The notes below the pieces were generated by a model, which searched no databases, was not told the DNA's origin, and saw only the letters and a list, made by a program, of their open reading frames with translations. Below are positions 13,962 to 53,778 of a stretch of 64,000 nt of DNA, piece by piece. The position numbers were made by a program, and so were the translations under genes. The stretch comes from Escherichia phage MIZ6. The stretch is from sequence record OR192075.1, one strand, 5' to 3'. Every line of letters begins with the position of its first letter. The stretch's first letter is position 1.

Positions 13962-16070
13962 TTAAAATTTAACATTCTTAACCAGTTTCATAAAGTCTTG
14001 TGCGCGTTTGTCGTTATGCAGAATACGATACCAGTTATCTACAATATCATACAGTAACGGGCTATTCTCTTTAAACTTAGCACAAACTGCTTTAATTCGT
14101 TCGTTTGCTGCCGTGAATTTTTCATCACAGATCTTTTTAGTTTCTTCGTCCATAATCCAACGAGTACGAAGGAGTAACTTGGAAACCTCTTTATTATAAT
14201 GACGACCGTACAGTCTGTCAATAAATTCTGGAACACAGCGTTCTAATTCATCGTCATGATACAACATAGTGATCACACCCAGATATTCGCCATACCCCAG
14301 ATGATTGGTCTTAACCTTCTTAGCCAGACCAGCCAGCTTACCGCGAACAAATTCTAGCGCACATTCCAATTGTTCGTCAACGAGATATTTTTGTGTCTCG
14401 TTTCGAGTAATAATATACTTTGTTACCCCGAAGTAGTCAAGCGCCGTGTGTAATGTATTTTCATTATAGATCGATTGACGGCTACGGCTTTCGAATGCAT
14501 CACCTACGCGGAACATGTGCAAGCCTGATAACTCGCGAATCTCTGCCGCTTTCATGTGATGGCTGGTTTTATGCCAACTGTCACCAATCTTTTCCATGAT
14601 ATACACGTTAGGCAGCTTGGGAGTAGCTTCACGTTGTGTACGCTCGGTCTTCTCCGGCTTAACTGCTTTAGCACGCAGATCATCGGCCTCTGATACCTTA
14701 ATCACGGTCATTTCAGATTCATCATAATACTGTTTGATGTACTCGAAAGTCTCCATATGTTTTTCGTTGCGCTGACGGAACACCAGTACCTTTTTATTAA
14801 TGCCGTATTCCTGGACCATGCCGTTAAGAGTCAGTGCACGCAGTTTCGGTTTATCGGTATCATCAATAAGACACGTAATATCTTCTTTATGCATCCATAC
14901 AAAATGCGTAATATTGTATTGACTGCTAACGAAAGCAGGTCGCAATTTGCTGATTGTGTGTCGATGATGATACAGAGTATACACCTGACCTTCTACGTCA
15001 TTAGGCGAATCTTTACCCGCATTCACAAACTTATTATAGATTGCTACCGGATCATCCCACTGTCCGATCTTACCCATCTTGCTAATAATATTGCGTTGCG
15101 TCGATGAATACTCGCTCATAAATTGCGCAAGTTTACGCTCTGTTTTAATGTTGGCGATCTTCTCTTTAACCTTTTCCAACATCATTTCATTGATTTCTGC
15201 AATGCGTTTTTCGATGTTCGCTTTAGTCTCAATTGACAAGTGAACTTCTTCACGCGATGGCATCAGGTCCAAATCACCCAACTCAAAATTAATGTAAATG
15301 GTCTGGTGCTGGCGGTTTACAGCTTCTAACCATGTTCCGCGAACATATTCATACGGGATCGGATACTGGATCTTACCCATGATTGCATATACTACATAGG
15401 AATCGTTATCACGCCCATTACAAACATAATAATTATCAAAGCTAGGGAAATAATTAATTTCGATTGCATTGATATTAGGTTTGTGTTCACCAAAATGACG
15501 CAGTACAAACTGTGCTTCTCGATGCCATGTCTGAATGTCTTTTTCTTTCACCGGAATAGTGATTTTCAGACCATTGTCTTCATAGGTCGGTTCGTCGAAA
15601 ATCTGCACCATTTTCGGCATAGAGTTTTGCACAAATGCCGTAAAGCCATAAGCGCGACCATTGTAGTAGTTTACGATTGTAAAGGTGTCGGTGTAGCTAT
15701 AAGCAGATTTCGCACCCAAACCAAAAGATCCGATATAATCATTAGTTTGGTCTTTTGTTGATTCAAAGTAAACCGTAAACAGTTGTTCTAATTCTTTCTT
15801 AGACGGAATACCAGTACCATAATCACGCACAGAAAAATACGGTTCGATTGCAGTTGGTAAATGAATATCAAACGGACGATCTAAGGTTCCGGCTTCTTTG
15901 TGAGTGTCGGTAGCATTGCACGAATACTCACGGACACAAGCACGTTCACAATATTGATAAGTGTTCTTAGAAAGCACCATAAAAGCCTTGCTACTTGCTT
16001 TCAGTGAAAAATCAACCGCACCGCTCAAGTCACTGCCAAATACTTCTTCATTATCAATATGCATTTTCAT
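13962..16070 (-). CDS. rIIA: rIIA protein
   Basis: 702 aa, adjacent to rIIB as in T4; size close to T4 rIIA (725 aa); ATG with conserved GAGGATTATATT initiation region. Confidence 0.85.
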   Translation of the reverse strand: MKMHIDNEEVFGSDLSGAVDFSLKASSKAFMVLSKNTYQYCERACVREYSCNATDTHKEAGTLDRPFDIHLPTAIEPYFSVRDYGTGIPSKKELEQLFTVYFESTKDQTNDYIGSFGLGAKSAYSYTDTFTIVNYYNGRAYGFTAFVQNSMPKMVQIFDEPTYEDNGLKITIPVKEKDIQTWHREAQFVLRHFGEHKPNINAIEINYFPSFDNYYVCNGRDNDSYVVYAIMGKIQYPIPYEYVRGTWLEAVNRQHQTIYINFELGDLDLMPSREEVHLSIETKANIEKRIAEINEMMLEKVKEKIANIKTERKLAQFMSEYSSTQRNIISKMGKIGQWDDPVAIYNKFVNAGKDSPNDVEGQVYTLYHHRHTISKLRPAFVSSQYNITHFVWMHKEDITCLIDDTDKPKLRALTLNGMVQEYGINKKVLVFRQRNEKHMETFEYIKQYYDESEMTVIKVSEADDLRAKAVKPEKTERTQREATPKLPNVYIMEKIGDSWHKTSHHMKAAEIRELSGLHMFRVGDAFESRSRQSIYNENTLHTALDYFGVTKYIITRNETQKYLVDEQLECALEFVRGKLAGLAKKVKTNHLGYGEYLGVITMLYHDDELERCVPEFIDRLYGRHYNKEVSKLLLRTRWIMDEETKKICDEKFTAANERIKAVCAKFKENSPLLYDIVDNWYRILHNDKRAQDFMKLVKNVKF

Positions 16071-16084
16071 AATATAATCCTCAC

Positions 16085-16342
16085 TTAATTAAAATCTTCT
16101 TTGTCCATCTCTGCGTAGATTACATCCCACGCCCATAAATCAATAAACGCATTATATGTCACGGTGCAATCGTTGTCAATCACTTCTTTCGCATATTTCT
16201 TGATGTTTTCGTAGGAAACTTGCGGGTCAATTTTGTGTTTACGAAGGTGCGCATATTCATATCTCAGACATTTCATAAATAGGTCCATCGATTTCTTTTC
16301 TCGATGACACTTGGCGATCATAAAATCAAAACTTCGACTCAT
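16085..16342 (-). CDS. Hypothetical protein (85 aa)
   Basis: Track ORF. Confidence 0.4.
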   Translation of the reverse strand: MSRSFDFMIAKCHREKKSMDLFMKCLRYEYAHLRKHKIDPQVSYENIKKYAKEVIDNDCTVTYNAFIDLWAWDVIYAEMDKEDFN

Positions 16343-16353
16343 TTTTCTACTCC

Positions 16354-16548
16354 TTATACATTTTCAATTACCCATTGCAGATGGGCTTCTGCGTCAACCA
16401 GTTCAGCGCGGCTTTTCTCTAAGCACTTGCTGTATTCTTTACGTTCCCACTCGGCAATTTCGTTTTTCAGGACTTCTTCATAGTAAGCAATTACGCCTTT
16501 CAGGTCTGAAACTTTACGGCTTGCCAATTCGATGTAATGGTTACGCAT
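16354..16548 (-). CDS. Hypothetical protein (64 aa)
   Basis: Track ORF. Confidence 0.35.
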   Translation of the reverse strand: MRNHYIELASRKVSDLKGVIAYYEEVLKNEIAEWERKEYSKCLEKSRAELVDAEAHLQWVIENV

Positions 16549-16735
16549 TTTGATTCTCCTTTGTTACTAGATAACGAATTTGGTCTTGCATTGCGATCAG
16601 TTCCCAGCGTGCTACTTTCATCATGGAAACTGACTCTTTGAACATAATATTAGCTTTTTCCTTCTCCCCTGTCAAGTAGATTTCTGCAATTTTTTCACAA
16701 AATTTTTGAGTTTCTTCATTCTTAAACGGTTTCAT
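16541..16735 (-). CDS. Hypothetical protein (64 aa)
   Basis: Track TTG start replaced by ATG (MKPFKNEE). Confidence 0.4.
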   Translation of the reverse strand: MKPFKNEETQKFCEKIAEIYLTGEKEKANIMFKESVSMMKVARWELIAMQDQIRYLVTKENQNA

Positions 16736-16765
16736 ATAAGTCAACCTTTTGTTTTCGATGGGGAC

Positions 16766-16794
16766 ATTATGATATATCCCCGATCCAGTGTCAA
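16766..16794 (-). promoter_or_regulatory. sigma70-like promoter (TTGACA-17-CATAAT) with GGGGA..TCCCC palindrome and one GATC in spacer
   Basis: Minus-strand reading of tgtcaa (16789-16794) and attatg (16766-16771). Confidence 0.35.
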
Positions 16795-16801
16795 CAGATT
16801 T

Positions 16802-17101
16802 TTAATCTTTTTTCAGTGCATCCATTACTCGCTCTGCGATCAGTTCTCGTAAGCACTGATAACCATGATATTTGATGGCAATGTCACGCAGATCATTAAC
16901 CAGTTCCCGTACTTCATGGTCTTTCAGATCGTCTCTGTATTTCGATTTAACCGTGTCTTTAGGTGGATTGCGGATAACCTGAAAACCTTGTTCTGCAATC
17001 ACTGCGGCTTCGCGCTGGCGTTCATGTTGTACTGTATTTTTGATCAGGTCTGCTTCCATGAACTTTGCCATACTCATCATCATGTTATTCTTTTTGCTCA
17101 T
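16802..17101 (-). CDS. Hypothetical protein (~99 aa)
   Basis: Start moved to ATG (MSKKNN) with SD GAGGA; longer track ORF would swallow the promoter. Confidence 0.4.
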   Translation of the reverse strand: MSKKNNMMMSMAKFMEADLIKNTVQHERQREAAVIAEQGFQVIRNPPKDTVKSKYRDDLKDHEVRELVNDLRDIAIKYHGYQCLRELIAERVMDALKKD

Positions 17102-17135
17102 TATTAAATCCTCATAAAAGAAAAGGGAGACTCCC

Positions 17136-17163
17136 ATTATAGAGAATCTCCCTTGTATGTCAA
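17136..17163 (-). promoter_or_regulatory. sigma70-like promoter (TTGACA-16-TATAAT) followed by GGGAGtCTCCC hairpin plus U-run
   Basis: Sits directly after the gp39 stop codon. Confidence 0.4.
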
Positions 17164-17166
17164 GTG

Positions 17167-18990
17167 TTATGATTGCATCCAAATTTTGCGCTGATCTGCA
17201 TCTTCACTATAGAGCAAATCGAATAGCTCTTTATAGTTTTCCGGTAACGTGATGATCTCCATGACAGGATCGTTGATCACGCGATGATAGTCTGATTCTG
17301 TGAGCGATGCTAAACCTTTGATATATCGAATGTTGTAACCTTTGATATTATCTCGGTCGTTCTCGAAATCTTCTAGGTCATAATACCATCGAACATCATC
17401 ACCTTTCTTTGGTTCAGCAATGATAATAGGTGTTTTGATAAACCGGATTCGTCCATCTTCGAACAATTCAGGCCAACGTGCAAAGAAAGAGATCAGACTA
17501 GGTTTAATAGACCCGATCCCGTCAGTATCAGCGTCTGTCATAATCGCAATATTTTTGTATTGCATAACTTCCAATGCATCAACACCAAATTGCAAGCCAG
17601 TGATCGCCATGATGTTAAAAATTTCGGCGTTCTTAACGATCTTTGCCTCCGGTTGTTCCCACGTTGTAAGAGTTTTGCCTCGCAACGGGAAACCTCCATG
17701 TAAATCTTGATCGCGTACAGAGATCAGATAGTTGATCGCGGAATCACCTTCCGTCAAAAACAGGGTAGTTTCTGCGTCAGTTCCAATAAGGTTAGCTTTA
17801 ACGTGTTTTGCCACCTTAGCCCGTTTCGCTGCCTTTGCTGCCTTAGTCGCTGCCGCTTTATCTGCTGCCTCTTTGCGTGCCAGGACTACAGCAATAATAG
17901 GCATGATAATGTTTTCTTTCTTAGCAATGACTTTAGCCAGCTTTTTAAAATCAAGATCAATATGACGCTTGATATCACCAGTTGGATTAGTCAATCGTTC
18001 TTTTGTCTGTGAATCAAAACGAAGGTTAGGCAATTCACGAACAATAAGAATACAGGTCAATCCAGACTTAACCGCAGCTTTAGTAACATCAACCTTATAT
18101 TCTTTCTTGATTCGTTTTACAATCTCTTCACAAAGATCATCTGTCACATAATCAACGTGTGTTCCCCCGTTTTTGGTAAACAGACCATTAGCAAAGGATA
18201 CTGATTTAAAACCTTCTCCCTCGACCGCAGGAACTAGGGCAAGTGAAAAGTTTTTATCTTCAATGACAAACGGATCATCATTGTATAGTTTAGCATAATC
18301 CTTGAACTTGCTGGTTATCTTTTTGCCATTAAACTTAAACGTGATCTTAGGAAAGATTACACTCAATGAATACATTCGATCGCAAATCACATCTGAAATT
18401 TCTTGTGACATGATCATACCTTCAAAATGATCGAAATCGGGGCAGAACGTAACCTTAGTTCCTTTCAGTTTTGACGGCTTAGATGACCAGCTAATATTTT
18501 CTGCACCATTGGTACATTGAACGGTCAGTTCATTCTCTCCGTCACACGTCACACCAGTAAACCAGGACGAGAAAAATGATGTGAGCGCGCTTCCGATCCC
18601 ATTCATACCCATAGTAACACGATTTGTATCATCAAAGTTAGACCCTGCTTTAGCTCGTGTCCATGCAGCAACTGGTTGTGGAATCTGTTTCCCTTCTGGC
18701 GTCGTAACAATATGTTGCGGAATACCGCGACCATTATCTGTTACTGACACAATGTTATCTTTTATATCCACACTAATAACATTAGCGTACTCAAAATTAG
18801 TGCGGATCGCCTCGTCTACAGAATTGTCGATAATTTCATCAATAATTTTAACTAGACCGGGAACGTATGAAACTTTGGTCCATTTTCCAAATAGGAAACG
18901 ATTGTGTGATTCATAAGTCGTTGACCCGATGTACATTGAAGGCCTCTTAAGACAGTGAGCGCGATCATCCAACAGCAAAAATTCAGACAT
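17167..18990 (-). CDS. 39: DNA topoisomerase II large subunit (GyrB-like), gp39 with gp60 region fused
   Basis: 607 aa continuous ORF; N-terminal ATPase domain plus TOPRIM-like region; T4 splits this as 39 + 60. Confidence 0.9.
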   Translation of the reverse strand: MSEFLLLDDRAHCLKRPSMYIGSTTYESHNRFLFGKWTKVSYVPGLVKIIDEIIDNSVDEAIRTNFEYANVISVDIKDNIVSVTDNGRGIPQHIVTTPEGKQIPQPVAAWTRAKAGSNFDDTNRVTMGMNGIGSALTSFFSSWFTGVTCDGENELTVQCTNGAENISWSSKPSKLKGTKVTFCPDFDHFEGMIMSQEISDVICDRMYSLSVIFPKITFKFNGKKITSKFKDYAKLYNDDPFVIEDKNFSLALVPAVEGEGFKSVSFANGLFTKNGGTHVDYVTDDLCEEIVKRIKKEYKVDVTKAAVKSGLTCILIVRELPNLRFDSQTKERLTNPTGDIKRHIDLDFKKLAKVIAKKENIIMPIIAVVLARKEAADKAAATKAAKAAKRAKVAKHVKANLIGTDAETTLFLTEGDSAINYLISVRDQDLHGGFPLRGKTLTTWEQPEAKIVKNAEIFNIMAITGLQFGVDALEVMQYKNIAIMTDADTDGIGSIKPSLISFFARWPELFEDGRIRFIKTPIIIAEPKKGDDVRWYYDLEDFENDRDNIKGYNIRYIKGLASLTESDYHRVINDPVMEIITLPENYKELFDLLYSEDADQRKIWMQS

Positions 18991-18996
18991 ATTATA

Positions 18997-19725
18997 TCAT
19001 TCTCCGTCAGTTCGTTTCAGGTATTCCAATGCCGCATATAATCTTTGAGGATCGTCTTTGAACATCCCTAATCCGGCATTACATTTTCCACAAAGAACAC
19101 CTCTTATCTTACCAGTCTTATGATTATGGTCAAGATGTTTCCACTTTTGGCGTTTTCTCACGCCGCATCGTTCATTTATGAATTTTACACCGCATATCTC
19201 GCAATTGTCAACTCTTCCTAAAATTTCTAACGCTTCTCTTTTTGATATTTTTATACCATTTTCGGCATGATGATATGGCCTATCTAGTTCTCGCTCTCGC
19301 TTCTCAAACAATCGACACTCATCAGAACAATACTTTTGAGATACGTTTATTGCAACAAATGGTTTACCACATTTAGCGCATTCTCGTTCAATCTTTATGT
19401 TTTGTGCCTGGTCCAACGATGCGCAACGAGAACAGCAAAATTTATGATAGCCTTTAGAGTATGTATGATAATTTACAGGATTTGGGCATCTTGCACATTT
19501 AACTATTCCTGTTATTCCGTGGCGCAATCTATAAACAGCCTCGTTATATGGTTGTTGATTTCTGAGACCTCCATTACAGAACTTAAACTCATTCCTTATA
19601 ATCTGAAATTCCGCAGGATACAATTTTTCCATTTCAGGAATTTTATTTTCTTTAAAAAGATTTGAGTTTAGTCTATTTCCGCTTTTCGCCTCCAGAACAT
19701 CAACAATAAACTTTTTGATGTTCAC
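18997..19725 (-). CDS. Putative homing endonuclease with zinc-ribbon repeats and C-terminal endonuclease VII-type (HNH-like) domain
   Basis: C-terminal CEICG..HLDHNHKTGKIRGVLCGKCN matches Endonuclease_7 signature; several CxxC pairs; likely GTG start with SD GGAGAG. Confidence 0.6.
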   Translation of the reverse strand: MNIKKFIVDVLEAKSGNRLNSNLFKENKIPEMEKLYPAEFQIIRNEFKFCNGGLRNQQPYNEAVYRLRHGITGIVKCARCPNPVNYHTYSKGYHKFCCSRCASLDQAQNIKIERECAKCGKPFVAINVSQKYCSDECRLFEKRERELDRPYHHAENGIKISKREALEILGRVDNCEICGVKFINERCGVRKRQKWKHLDHNHKTGKIRGVLCGKCNAGLGMFKDDPQRLYAALEYLKRTDGE

Positions 19726-19791
19726 TTTTTCTCTCTCCAATTCATAACATAACCATAACTTACTGCAACCGCCACAAAGACGGCTGCAACA

Positions 19792-19819
19792 ATCATATTA
19801 AAAATTGAGTGATTGTCAA
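19792..19819 (-). promoter_or_regulatory. sigma70-like promoter (TTGACA-16-TATGAT)
   Basis: Minus-strand reading of tgtcaa (19814-19819) and atcata (19792-19797). Confidence 0.4.
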
Positions 19820-19828
19820 GTATATGAC

Positions 19829-20002
19829 TCATGACACGCGCACATTTTTATCGTAATACCCGCCATTAATCCCGCGCGGGGCAGTTAATCCCTGTTTGCA
19901 TTCTTTACCACATTCAGGGCATTCTGCCTTTTCACGCTCGGAAATTTTGCGGATTTTCTGAAATTGACCGTGTTCTTCACAAGAATAATCATATAATGGC
20001 AT
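19829..20002 (-). CDS. FmdB-family zinc-ribbon protein (~57 aa)
   Basis: MPLYDYSCEEHGQF...CPECG motif; start moved to internal ATG. Confidence 0.4.
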   Translation of the reverse strand: MPLYDYSCEEHGQFQKIRKISEREKAECPECGKECKQGLTAPRGINGGYYDKNVRVS

Positions 20003-20003
20003 A

Positions 20004-20672
20004 TTATCCCCTTTGTTTCTTAACTGAATTTGGATCTGGATTTTCTGGCAAGTCTTCCAGACCCATAGCATAACGTTGTGCATAGATTAGCATAAGAATA
20101 TCGCGAGCGCAATCATGAATTGCATCATGTGCGATAAAACCATCTAGCGTACCCATTGGTAACGGACACTCACACATCCCGCGATGCATCAATGTACGCT
20201 CAATGGCGGTGCGAACATCTCGGATGTTCCAGAATCGCACAGGTTCAAGATTGAACGTCTCTCGTGTATTGTGTGCACGGCGGATCATATCAACTAGTAA
20301 CGGAATATCAAACGCATTACCGCGTGACCACATTACGGATTTAACCGGATCTACTCCTACGGCTTCACAGAATGCGTTAAAACGCGCTAAACCTTCTTTA
20401 GTTGATACTTCCGTACCATTTGTGATTAATTGCTTTCTCATGCCTTCTGAGGCGGTATTCTTCCACCATTCAACCACACCATGATCAAACACCCTTACAC
20501 CTTTCTGGGAAGGAATATCAAATTTTACCAGAAAGGAATTGTCAACCAGTTCTTTAAATGTAGGTGGATTGTGCGGATCTTCTTTAAATCCGATTGCCGC
20601 CATATTGATAACCGCCCCATCAGGCGGATAACCTAAACTTTCAAAGTCAATCATTAAATCCACTGGAAGCAT
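20004..20672 (-). CDS. dexA: 3'-5' exonuclease (DnaQ-like DEDDh), DexA-like
   Basis: Exo motifs DFES, GNAFD, H-x4-D; start moved to ATG (MLPVDL) with SD GGAGGA; syntenic with T4 dexA. Confidence 0.7.
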   Translation of the reverse strand: MLPVDLMIDFESLGYPPDGAVINMAAIGFKEDPHNPPTFKELVDNSFLVKFDIPSQKGVRVFDHGVVEWWKNTASEGMRKQLITNGTEVSTKEGLARFNAFCEAVGVDPVKSVMWSRGNAFDIPLLVDMIRRAHNTRETFNLEPVRFWNIRDVRTAIERTLMHRGMCECPLPMGTLDGFIAHDAIHDCARDILMLIYAQRYAMGLEDLPENPDPNSVKKQRG

Positions 20673-20673
20673 T

Positions 20674-20916
20674 TTAAATATCCTCCGCGATATGCCGGAA
20701 CAACTCCAGATCGTTTTTATCCAGAATGAAACCGCTACAATCAATAATCCCGTTACCGTAATTATCGGTTAACAGTCGTTCCGTTGCCATGTATGCGCGT
20801 ACTTTGTTGTTAAAATTCATTACATGTTGTGCATAGTCACAATGAATCTTTTGACGGTTCCACGCGACAATTGATTGTAGATGTATTACATTAGCCACAT
20901 TATTAATAACAACCAT
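20674..20916 (-). CDS. Hypothetical protein (80 aa)
   Basis: Track ORF, ATG start. Confidence 0.4.
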   Translation of the reverse strand: MVVINNVANVIHLQSIVAWNRQKIHCDYAQHVMNFNNKVRAYMATERLLTDNYGNGIIDCSGFILDKNDLELFRHIAEDI

Positions 20917-20917
20917 A

Positions 20918-21085
20918 TCAAAACCCTCGCTTAGTGAAATATTCGATCATTTTATTGATACATTCAGCTTCACTGTCGCCGGATACGTTCCATCCATAAT
21001 GACCCCAACTAAAACACATGGTAACAGTTCCATTGTGACGGCGTACCGTCACATCATCAAATTCTGGGATACTTCGCATAATCAT
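20918..21085 (-). CDS. Hypothetical small protein (55 aa)
   Basis: Hand-translated MIMRSIPEFDDVTVRRHNG...; SD GAGGAA; fills gap between dda and next gene. Confidence 0.35.
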   Translation of the reverse strand: MIMRSIPEFDDVTVRRHNGTVTMCFSWGHYGWNVSGDSEAECINKMIEYFTKRGF

Positions 21086-53304: not shown

Positions 53305-53778
53305 CTATCTTAATCTTTGTATAAATTGTTTCTTATACTTCTTCGTGATCTCTTCTCGTGTATCAGCGTCGCAGTAATCGAAACCTTCTGCGTCCATAAT
53401 AGCAACCATCTCCGCGCGTGTCAAGCGTGAAAATCGTTTTACTTTATCAACAGCATATTGAGGATGTAAATGATTGTTGGTGTAGTCTCCTTTGATGTAA
53501 TTAACATAGTTTGTAGCCCAAACAACGAAATCAGCACCTAAAGCACCAACACCAAACCGTTTAAAGTCTCCGGTCAACGATCCTTCTAGGCGGTTGCAAC
53601 ACGAATGAAGCAATCCCCTTACGCGGCCTTGCCCTTTACCATCTAGATCGTGGTCGTGGTCAAGATGGTTTTTGCTCATATCCTCAAAAAGTGGCAATTG
53701 ACAAAGGGGGCAAATGCCCCCCTGTTTTTCGAATAGTTCTTGTTTGTACTCTTTAGCACTCTTAGCAGTCAGTAACAT
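53305..53778 (-). CDS. 49: Endonuclease VII (Holliday-junction resolvase)
   Basis: 157 aa from ATG, same as T4; CPLCQ...NHLDHDHDL..G.VRGLL motif; SD GGAGGGTG. Confidence 0.8.
   Translation of the reverse strand: MLLTAKSAKEYKQELFEKQGGICPLCQLPLFEDMSKNHLDHDHDLDGKGQGRVRGLLHSCCNRLEGSLTGDFKRFGVGALGADFVVWATNYVNYIKGDYTNNHLHPQYAVDKVKRFSRLTRAEMVAIMDAEGFDYCDADTREEITKKYKKQFIQRLR

Follow-up and report, generated by a model that had tools for sequence, protein, structure and literature searches.

A probable free-standing homing endonuclease and its linked gene 39 allele in Krischvirus phages

Free-standing homing endonucleases are a fairly ordinary kind of mobile element in T4-like phages, and several described examples bear on the gene considered here, a 242-codon open reading frame (ORF) directly upstream of topoisomerase gene 39 in a stretch of 64,000 nucleotides (nt) of Escherichia phage MIZ6 (OR192075.1; the whole stretch is called the window below). 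One of these, gp6 of phage VR7 (VR7ORF006c), has already been predicted to be a free-standing homing endonuclease and was placed, with its motif at the C terminus, in the endonuclease clade of the family that carries the endonuclease VII (Endo VII) motif (Fang et al. 2018). The family is defined by the residue set CX2C...DHxH...R...CX2C-N, which is essential in F-CphI (Fang et al. 2018), the ORF177 product of cyanophage S-PM2 and founding member of the "DHHRN" family. MobA, an enzyme of T4 type, lies in a cassette with a 50-nt bypass element that protects the carrier; it is filed in the HNH family, with a predicted GUG start and a promoter-less cassette (PMC2988022). Such promoter-less cassettes have been described for seven of the free-standing homing endonucleases of T4, among which overlap with an upstream ORF and a GUG start also have precedents (PMC2988022).

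The present analysis adds to these systems a member from the genus Krischvirus, the structure of its cassette of about 1.43 kb, the conservation of its genomic slot across phage lineages, and a target predicted to lie at the very start of gene 39. An initial annotation of the window had proposed a likely homing endonuclease directed at gene 39, and the nuclease domain, the sporadic distribution, the linked gene 39 allele, and the conserved slot all point the same way; on these grounds the gene product very probably acts, or until recently acted, as a homing endonuclease on gene 39. Over 4.2 kb around the gene, no base distinguishes the window from Escherichia phage MIZ2 (OR167178.1; 100% identity), which is a Krischvirus among the RB49-like T4-like phages, and in all comparisons "MIZ2" denotes the sequence identical to the window over this region. 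The locus, which adjoins gene 39 as first reported, is composed of the following parts.

19722..19832 (-): 36-amino acid (aa) hydrophobic ORF, homolog of RB49 ORF006.1; a resident gene, with the cassette in place of its last seven codons
19741..19743 (-): left (upstream) junction of the insert, within the 3' end of the 36-aa ORF
18997..19725 (-): endonuclease gene, GTG start, 242 codons plus TGA; the ORF is intact
17167..18990 (-): gene 39, topoisomerase II large subunit, 607 aa, 1824 nt; it starts 6 nt downstream of the endonuclease stop
18310..18990 (-): foreign 5' segment of gene 39, nt 1-681, which accompanies the endonuclease

The C-terminal Endonuclease_7 signature from which the initial annotation started is borne out by domain searches, which find an Endo VII-type nuclease (Pfam Endonuclease_7, PF02945, E=5.6e-16, 58.7 bits with a cut-off of 23.6), with matches to PHROG endonuclease VII/HNH families down to 1.5e-20. 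The CxxC pairs noticed in the N-terminal half likewise prove to belong to two zinc fingers of the FCS/YacG type, and the protein as a whole is divided as follows.

19516..19725 (-): N-terminal helical domain, aa 1-70, specific to this endonuclease family
19423..19497 (-): zinc finger 1, aa 77-101, CARC...FCCSRC, a treble clef of the FCS/YacG type
19315..19380 (-): zinc finger 2, aa 116-137, CAKC...YCSDEC, of the same FCS/YacG type
19015..19209 (-): Endo VII-type (beta-beta-alpha-Me, or "DHHRN") nuclease domain, aa 173-237, C-terminal

The nuclease motif reads C175-x2-C178 ... H197-L-D199-H200-N-H202 ... R208 ... C212-x2-C215-N216, in which C175, C178, C212, and C215 are the predicted zinc ligands and D199, H200, H202, R208, and N216 the predicted catalytic residues. 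The complete catalytic and zinc-binding set of the family is thus present, at a score above the Pfam gathering cut-off, and C175, C178, D199, H200, H202, R208, C212, C215, and N216 are invariant among 30 relatives (alignment A3). The motif lies at the C terminus (aa 173-237 of 242), which is the arrangement of the endonuclease clade and not of the resolvase clade. Judged by its sequence, the protein is a member of the Endo VII-motif ("DHHRN," F-CphI-like) family and of the same small group as VR7 gp6. The closest solved structure by sequence is that of Hpy99I (PDB 3fc3; E=7.9e-10, aa 162-239), a sequence-specific bacterial restriction enzyme that is paired with a methylase, and T4 Endo VII (1e7d) is matched at its core only (E=4.5e-3). 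A Pfam scan of the 242-aa protein gave no HNH_3, no AP2 (E<=1), and no dimerization domain PF09124.

Both zinc fingers have the form CxxC...[FY]C(C/S)xxC (C77/C80/C97-98/C101 and C116/C119/C133/C137), and C116, C119, and C137 of the second are invariant or almost so; the first is presumed to bind DNA. An AlphaFold2 model, with a mean predicted local distance difference test score (pLDDT) of 87.4 and a predicted template modeling score of 0.50, as expected for a beads-on-a-string layout, comprises an N-terminal five-helix domain (helices 3-11, 21-24, 29-35, 37-49, and 59-69; block mean pLDDT 75-94), the two small zinc fingers, a helix, and a beta-beta-alpha C-terminal domain. The N-terminal helical domain is presumed to be the target-recognition module. 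When aa 1-160 were compared exhaustively by HMMER with 1.84 billion representatives, the architecture of aa 1-150 was found in only about 7-8 clusters at 50% identity, the remaining matches being to the generic second zinc finger, which is repeated in hundreds of unrelated proteins.

The gene is sporadically distributed. A megablast search with the 4.2-kb region returned 58 Krischvirus records, in most of which about 19% of the query is absent, and by tblastn the protein is found in exactly 12 records, at 96.7-99.6% identity (MIZ2-5, G2248, G5211, Skers, PHB13, JK32, JEP8, E26, and FL04). With the 56-58 matching Krischvirus records as the denominator, about 44 (about 80%) are without the endonuclease. 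In RB49, Phi1, JSE, Sf20, kvi, and others, nothing separates ORF006.1 from gene 39, and the two overlap by 8 nt; the net insert is 739 bp in 10 of the 10 carrier loci read. Its left junction is sharp, falling directly after ...GGTTATGTTATG, and the sequence further upstream is common to the non-carriers, with no more than background divergence over 935-941 nt; a metagenomic contig with a homolog, P0002, has the same left junction as the Krischvirus carriers.

Carriers fall in species of the International Committee on Taxonomy of Viruses whose other members are without the endonuclease. PHB13 is assigned to species RB49, and JEP8 and E26 to species gec3s, of which GEC-3S aligns over only 81% of the 4.2-kb query, a coverage that resembles that of phages lacking the gene. 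In the flanks, carriers and non-carriers are mutual nearest neighbors: MIZ4 differs from Sf20 and RB49, both non-carriers, by 1-2 nt in 935 nt, and the carrier G5211 differs from the non-carrier G37-3 by 2 nt in 1080 nt. The comparison of presence, absence, and flanking sequence thus reveals a gene that is not universally conserved but sporadically present, in 12 carriers, at one fixed locus among close relatives.

Wherever the endonuclease is present in Krischvirus, a foreign allele of the gene beside it is found as well. Gene 39 and the upstream flank were compared after anchored extraction in 18 genomes, and carriers diverge from non-carriers by 12-34% in gene 39 nt 1-700. On either side, over 940 nt in front of the junction and over nt 701-1800 of gene 39, they differ by 0-3%, the background that is also found within each group. 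Between 10 carriers and 7 non-carriers, gene 39 shows 140 fixed differences, every one of them within nt 4-681 (window 18987..18310); nt 682-1824 are free of them, and the right boundary at nt 681 is common to all carriers. The MIZ2 gene 39 is therefore chimeric, foreign in nt 1-681 and RB49-like in nt 682-1824. Searched against the phage collection, the 700-bp block finds 13 records at 92% or above (the 12 carriers and G37-3), and the other 43 records match it at about 79% and are alignable only from nt 54. The foreign allele accompanies the endonuclease in 12 of 12 carriers and is found in 1 of 44 non-carriers (Fisher p=2e-11), a linked polymorphism, or co-conversion tract, in the adjacent presumed target gene.

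Outside the cassette, no sequence comes closer to the block than the RB49 type itself (78-79%), so that the donor appears to be an unsampled relative; the metagenomic contig P0004 was rejected as a donor, being no closer (27-45% diverged). The foreign segment is presumed to be a cleavage-resistant allele. The single non-carrier with this allele, G37-3, agrees with the carriers at 138 of the 140 diagnostic bases; its junction, through ATGAGTGA, is of the RB49 type, and the crossover apparently took place no more than 5-9 nt into gene 39. Probably it either derives from a carrier by loss of the endonuclease or arose as a recombinant that is naturally resistant, and it suggests the state, expected in the life cycle of a homing endonuclease, in which the element is lost and the resistant allele kept. 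In Skers and JK32 the foreign block contains an RB49-type patch at gene 39 nt ~120-190, over the conserved codons of the GHKL N-box, which argues that this patch is not the recognition site.

In other phage lineages, namely Gaprivervirus and about nine metagenomic ones, every full-length homolog with readable context abuts the 5' end of the topoisomerase gene and has its orientation. In Gaprivervirus, a different genus in a different subfamily, VR7, VR26, RZ, and TH15 have the gene immediately 5' of gene 39, and the encoded full-length homologs are 40-45% identical over 98-99% of the protein; against these four carriers, about 25 other Gaprivervirus records are listed without the gene. Metagenomic homologs (P0002, P0004, P0009, P0010, P0013, P0014, P0015, and P0016; 36-76% identity) all lie immediately upstream of, and in the same orientation as, a topoisomerase large-subunit gene. 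In P0016 the upstream neighbors are a DNA ligase and a metallophosphatase and are not syntenic, so that only the link to the topoisomerase gene is conserved. A scan of IMG/VR with the family alignment gave VR26 itself as its sole full-length match.

The Gaprivervirus homologs are also accompanied by gene 39 tracts, of lengths different from that in MIZ2: 57 nt in VR7 and about 1200 nt in VR26, compared with 681 nt. The carrier VR26 diverges from the non-carrier VR25 by 15-47% in gene 39 nt 1-1200, by 0-6% in nt 1201-1800, and by about 11% in the last 33 nt of the gene (to nt 1833). The carrier VR7 differs from VR25 by 19 mostly synonymous substitutions in gene 39 nt 9-57, AGC<->TCN serine switches included, and divergence is only 0-2% from there to about nt 300.

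Two of the metagenomic homologs bear apparent scars of insertion. The P0016 protein starts with MSEFKILSERD, followed by the N terminus of the family, and its first 33 nt copy 28 of the 33 nt of codons 1-11 of its own downstream gene 39, with synonymous differences. On the P0004 contig, a Shine-Dalgarno sequence and an ATG followed by MAEEFHLLTNKEHVR stand just upstream of the endonuclease GTG; this remnant of 15 codons recognizably resembles the start of gene 39, its RB49 counterpart being MSEFRILSDREHVLKR. From these two duplications and the VR7/VR25 tract that ends at nt 57, the original break or insertion would be expected at about gene 39 nt 30-60, and the chances that homing cleavage itself would fall within these limits appear evenly balanced. 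In the window the equivalent is as follows.

18931..18961 (-): predicted equivalent of the homing site, gene 39 nt ~30-60, codons ~11-20, ..DRAHCLKRPSM..

The predicted target region encodes ..(D/E)H-x-x-K-R-x-G-M-Y-I-G-S, and in RB49 gene 39 it reads, at about nt 30-60, 5'-TGAACATGTCCTTAAGCGTGCAGGAATGTATATAGG-3'. The K-R-(A/S)-G codons of every carrier allele read differ from the CGT-KCW-GG of non-carrier alleles, and the MIZ2 version of the predicted site is presumably a diverged, immune form.

These features would fit the following course of events. In a mixed infection, the enzyme would recognize the first ~60 bp of gene 39 (probably nt ~30-60) in an element-free phage by means of its N-terminal helical domain and two zinc fingers, and its C-terminal beta-beta-alpha-Me domain would nick or cut this target. 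Repair by recombination on the carrier template would then copy the endonuclease, 739 bp net, together with the adjoining 681 bp of gene 39. That segment, being 12-34% diverged, would be uncleavable, which would provide immunity, and also too different for recombination within it, so that a unit of about 1.43 kb would move as one block. Lodged between a resident promoter-like site and gene 39, the cassette would supply gene 39 with a ribosome-binding site in its own last codons; the final endonuclease codons (..DGE*) do contain a GGAG that precedes the gene 39 ATG. From the sequences we infer cleavage activity, the exact target, the immunity of the carrier allele, and ongoing mobility.

Comparison with the described systems illustrates which parts of this scheme have precedents. 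VR7 gp6 and the enzymes of VR26, RZ, and TH15 have the same helical domain, two zinc fingers, and C-terminal Endo VII motif as the MIZ2 protein, and the same position directly upstream of gene 39, sporadic in the genus. F-CphI, likewise free-standing in a T4-like phage and with a C-terminal Endo VII motif (CX2-4C/D/H/H/R/CX2C/N), targets a conserved gene of phages without the element, as is proposed here. It is much smaller than the 242-aa protein, with its catalytic domain at residues 71-129, and no N-terminal or zinc-finger homology was detected between the two. The activity of F-CphI has been demonstrated experimentally, as Mg2+-dependent sequential nicking that leads to a double-strand break, whereas that of the MIZ2 enzyme is predicted. 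An association with a group I intron, as in F-CphI, was considered and rejected: Rfam gave no family, group I intron included, in window 16000-21000. The endonuclease gene is intergenic, outside any intron or intein, and the adjoining gene 39 is a full ORF.

The parallel with T4 mobA drawn in the initial annotation stands as a functional analogy only. Like MobA, the MIZ2 enzyme is free-standing, is associated with the same essential gene, and lies in a cassette with a protecting sequence, which in MIZ2 would be the diverged 5' segment. MobA, however, inserts at about nt 1400 and splits the gene into 39 and 60 (in T4, mobA is present between the two as a pseudogene, on the downstream side of gene 39), whereas the MIZ2 element precedes the first codon of an unbroken gene. 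Homology to MobA was rejected in that the MIZ2 protein matches neither HNH_3 (PF13392) nor AP2, both of which are present in the JSE_00005-type Mob-like ORF used for the comparison. The "intronless homing" of SegF, SegG, and MobE provides a further likeness, with an intergenic gene, a neighboring gene that is cut, co-conversion of the flanks, and a polymorphic target (PMC2988022); the Seg enzymes are of a different nuclease family (GIY-YIG). Intron-encoded enzymes cut within 25 bp of their insertion site, and enzymes of the SegF/SegG/MobE type differ in the location of the cleavage site (PMC2988022). For the MIZ2 element, to judge from the scars and the VR7/VR25 tract, the cut would fall within some tens of bp of the insertion, more as in the intron-encoded enzymes. 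The literature searched on Krischvirus and the MIZ phages contained nothing on this endonuclease cassette.

Expression of the gene appears to depend on its surroundings. The initial annotation had credited the endonuclease with a promoter of its own, and as a sequence match this site is real.

19819..19792 (-): sigma-70-like site TTGACA-16-TATGAT, an 11/12 match to the consensus

The claim of ownership fails, because the site lies inside the 36-aa ORF and outside the insert and is base for base the same in RB49, which is without the endonuclease; it is a resident site. In all Krischvirus it probably serves gene 39, and the endonuclease element, as read from its sequence a promoter-less cassette, would make use of it. 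Further promoter-like matches are TTGACA-18-TAAAAT at 19211..19182 and CTGAAA-18-TATAAT ending at the gene 39 ATG. In the lineages of Gaprivervirus type, by comparison, the endonuclease ATG directly follows a MotA box (TTGCTTTA) and TATAAT, without a Shine-Dalgarno sequence, whereas the MIZ2 gene has a GTG with a Shine-Dalgarno sequence and is coupled to the small ORF. The MotA-box and TATAAT element, which is presumably a middle-type promoter as in T4, also precedes gene 39 in VR25, which is without the endonuclease.

Two hairpins are predicted around the start of the gene. A 14-pair stem lies just 3' of the promoter-like site, inside ORF006.1 (window 19760-19792, minus strand), and is present in RB49 too, and a 9-bp stem follows right after the GTG (window 19693-19721, minus strand). 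The 111-nt region with both has a folding energy of -32.1 kcal/mol (z = -4.7 versus shuffles), and the Shine-Dalgarno sequence and GTG are unpaired in the predicted fold.

The proposed GTG start is upheld as well. It lies at 19725, with the Shine-Dalgarno sequence GGAGAGAG 5 nt upstream, and overlaps the TGA stop of the 36-aa ORF (GTGA); the start is supported because the N terminus, M-[ND]-[IL]-K-[KQ]-F-I, is kept among the homologs of alignment A2. The P0002 homolog has an ATG at the position of the MIZ2 GTG, and those of P0015 and P0016 have short N-terminal extensions. The ORF coincides with a MIZ2 GenBank coding sequence (CDS) labeled "endonuclease VII." The 36-aa ORF has no Pfam match. 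The GAGAGAGAAAAAG tract right before the GTG (window 19726-19742) varies in length among carriers: with 2 nt fewer in MIZ4 and MIZ5, the 36-aa ORF is fused in frame to the endonuclease (an 834-nt CDS in GenBank), and with 1 nt fewer in Skers and JK32, the small ORF runs 26 nt into the endonuclease gene. This variation may amount to a slippage-prone translational coupling. Downstream, the full gene 39 ORF matches RB49 gene 39 codon by codon from codon 1; in the GenBank records of MIZ2, G2248, G5211, and FL04, gene 39 is annotated 54 nt short (1770 versus 1824 nt; window 18937-18990), which produces an apparent 60-nt gap after the endonuclease.

Several considerations weigh against the interpretation as a homing endonuclease of gene 39, or at least against parts of it. 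The target at nt 30-60 has been derived from three indirect lines of evidence, and the MIZ2 and VR7 enzymes, which are only about 40% identical, may not share a specificity. F-CphI, the tested member of the family, has only the catalytic motif in common with the 242-aa protein. HNH-type homing enzymes often only nick, and the way in which nicks lead to homing is unsettled (PMC2988022). The ORF is preserved far beyond chance, and the endonuclease is under strong purifying selection: 10 of the 10 copies read are intact, with pairwise ratios of nonsynonymous to synonymous substitution rates (dN/dS) of 0.06-0.11, and dN/dS is 0.05-0.15 in each lineage pair tested, which marks the gene as functional. 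Such selection is atypical of a purely selfish element near fixation and could reflect a benefit to the phage. Finally, the one right boundary at nt 681 also fits a single ancient acquisition followed by ordinary recombination in the flanks, and this constancy is the main limit on inferring ongoing mobility.

These last points lead to the alternative that survives best, although it is itself unlikely: a former homing endonuclease or accessory nuclease, no longer mobile, that entered once, was later shuffled by homologous recombination, and is kept because it serves the phage, perhaps in excluding co-infecting competitors, whose DNA it would cut, or in stimulating recombination-dependent replication. 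The identical right boundary and left junction in all carriers would then reflect one founding event, and the low dN/dS sustained selection on the protein; T4-like phages recombine heavily, and mosaic flanks alone need no homing. However, a constant boundary is expected under active homing and under one founder alike, because the block is too diverged to recombine within, and excluding competitors by cutting gene 39 is mechanistically the same activity as homing. Moreover, homologs only 36-60% identical hold the same slot in several lineages, with gene 39 tracts of 57, ~1200, and 681 nt and with differing insertion scars, and repeated independent invasions of this kind are left unexplained by a passive passenger.

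A variant of the homing interpretation, which must be regarded as quite improbable, would make the gene an element dedicated to gene 39, with tandem YacG/FCS-like fingers that also contact the GyrB-like subunit, its mRNA, or the DNA of its start region. If it were true, each invasion would swap a foreign N-terminal segment of 20-400 codons, in the ATPase domain, into an essential enzyme, and the element would drive a modular evolution of phage topoisomerases, serve as a weapon between phages, and be selected for the benefit it brings to its carrier.

By the name in most GenBank records, the protein would be a second recombination endonuclease VII and, as such, would resolve Holliday junctions structure-specifically or help in DNA packaging. 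The Pfam and PHROG names and the conserved catalytic residues of T4 Endo VII speak for such a role, which is nevertheless highly improbable, for the window encodes a canonical resolvase elsewhere.

53308..53778 (-): gp49 endonuclease VII (Holliday-junction resolvase), 157 aa, separate from the cassette

This full-length gp49 ortholog matches Pfam Endonuclease_7 and Endonuc-dimeris (PF09124, E=1.1e-15) and, by tblastn, is 44.6% identical over 157 aa to T4 gp49 (E=7e-45). With it the resolvase role is already filled, and the same argument has been made for VR7 gp6 versus gp81 (Fang et al. 2018). T4 Endo VII, a dimeric junction resolvase, has a C-terminal dimerization domain that is not matched in the 242-aa protein, whose C-terminal motif is that of the endonuclease clade and whose nearest structure is Hpy99I. 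A gp49-type resolvase was accordingly rejected for a protein without PF09124 and absent from ~44 of 56-58 otherwise near-identical phages.

Equally hard to credit is a partner or regulator of the topoisomerase, with YacG-like fingers that bind the GyrB-like gp39 and a secondary nuclease domain, although such a role would account for the constant position of the gene beside gene 39. The resemblance to YacG is confined to the treble-clef zinc core common to FCS fingers and hundreds of unrelated repeat proteins (a generic match that was set aside as a functional lead), and the tail of Escherichia coli YacG (DLGEW...), which we take to contribute to gyrase binding, has no counterpart by eye after either finger. 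Most close relatives would not do without a gene that regulates an essential enzyme, and the foreign allele of gene 39 and its duplicated starts are marks of insertion rather than regulatory features.

With the homing endonuclease as the preferred interpretation, the MIZ2 element is one of several that occupy the ends of gene 39. In P479, a Gaprivervirus, the slot upstream of gene 39 contains a Seg-like ORF with GIY-YIG, NUMOD3, and I-TevI DNA-binding domains (L031:1230-2027), and the Endo VII-type endonuclease of P0010 sits on a gene 39 allele of the P479 type, which suggests that elements replace one another at the 5' slot. ORFs of 132-137 aa with no confident Pfam family are found upstream of gene 39 in SP18 (L030:1174-1572) and next to the endonuclease of RZ (L009:3538-3951). 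At the other end of the gene, just downstream, JSE, G37-3, kvi, and G5211 encode a Mob-like ORF of 187 aa with HNH_3 and AP2.

L004, L005, L006, and L014, each at 661-1224: HNH_3+AP2 ORF, missing from the equivalent position in the window, ~17160-17185

Gene 39 varies together with this ORF in its last 24 nt (13-32% divergence; the protein ends in WMAS versus WMQS), and G5211 carries both endonucleases, one 5' and one 3' of gene 39, so that the 3' end is a second, independently variable endonuclease slot. On the P0010 contig a 275-aa ORF with a weak NUMOD3 match (E=0.006) overlaps the end of the topoisomerase gene (L038:3664-4491) and may be another endonuclease at the 3' slot. The same early-gene cluster contains one more presence/absence polymorphism: a 177-nt ORF of the phi1p009.1 type lies between the ORF009 and ORF010 homologs in Phi1, G37-3, kvi, Skers, and Delraymugoa and is absent in MIZ2 and RB49 (window ~20915-20920).

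These results open no new kind of biology. They do imply that the labels "endonuclease VII," "recombination endonuclease," and "hypothetical protein" now attached to this gene should read probable homing endonuclease, and they provide a concrete predicted target, gene 39 nt ~30-60, for an uncharacterized branch of the Endo VII-motif homing family. As rare-cutting nucleases or nickases, enzymes of this family could hold a modest interest if their specificities are new. The carriers also represent natural chimeras in which a gp39 with 227 foreign N-terminal codons must still work. More broadly, gene 39 of T4-like phages appears to be contested by at least three unrelated types of homing endonuclease at its two ends, the Endo VII and GIY-YIG types at the 5' end and the HNH_3 type at the 3' end, in addition to MobA, known from the literature, in the middle of the gene.

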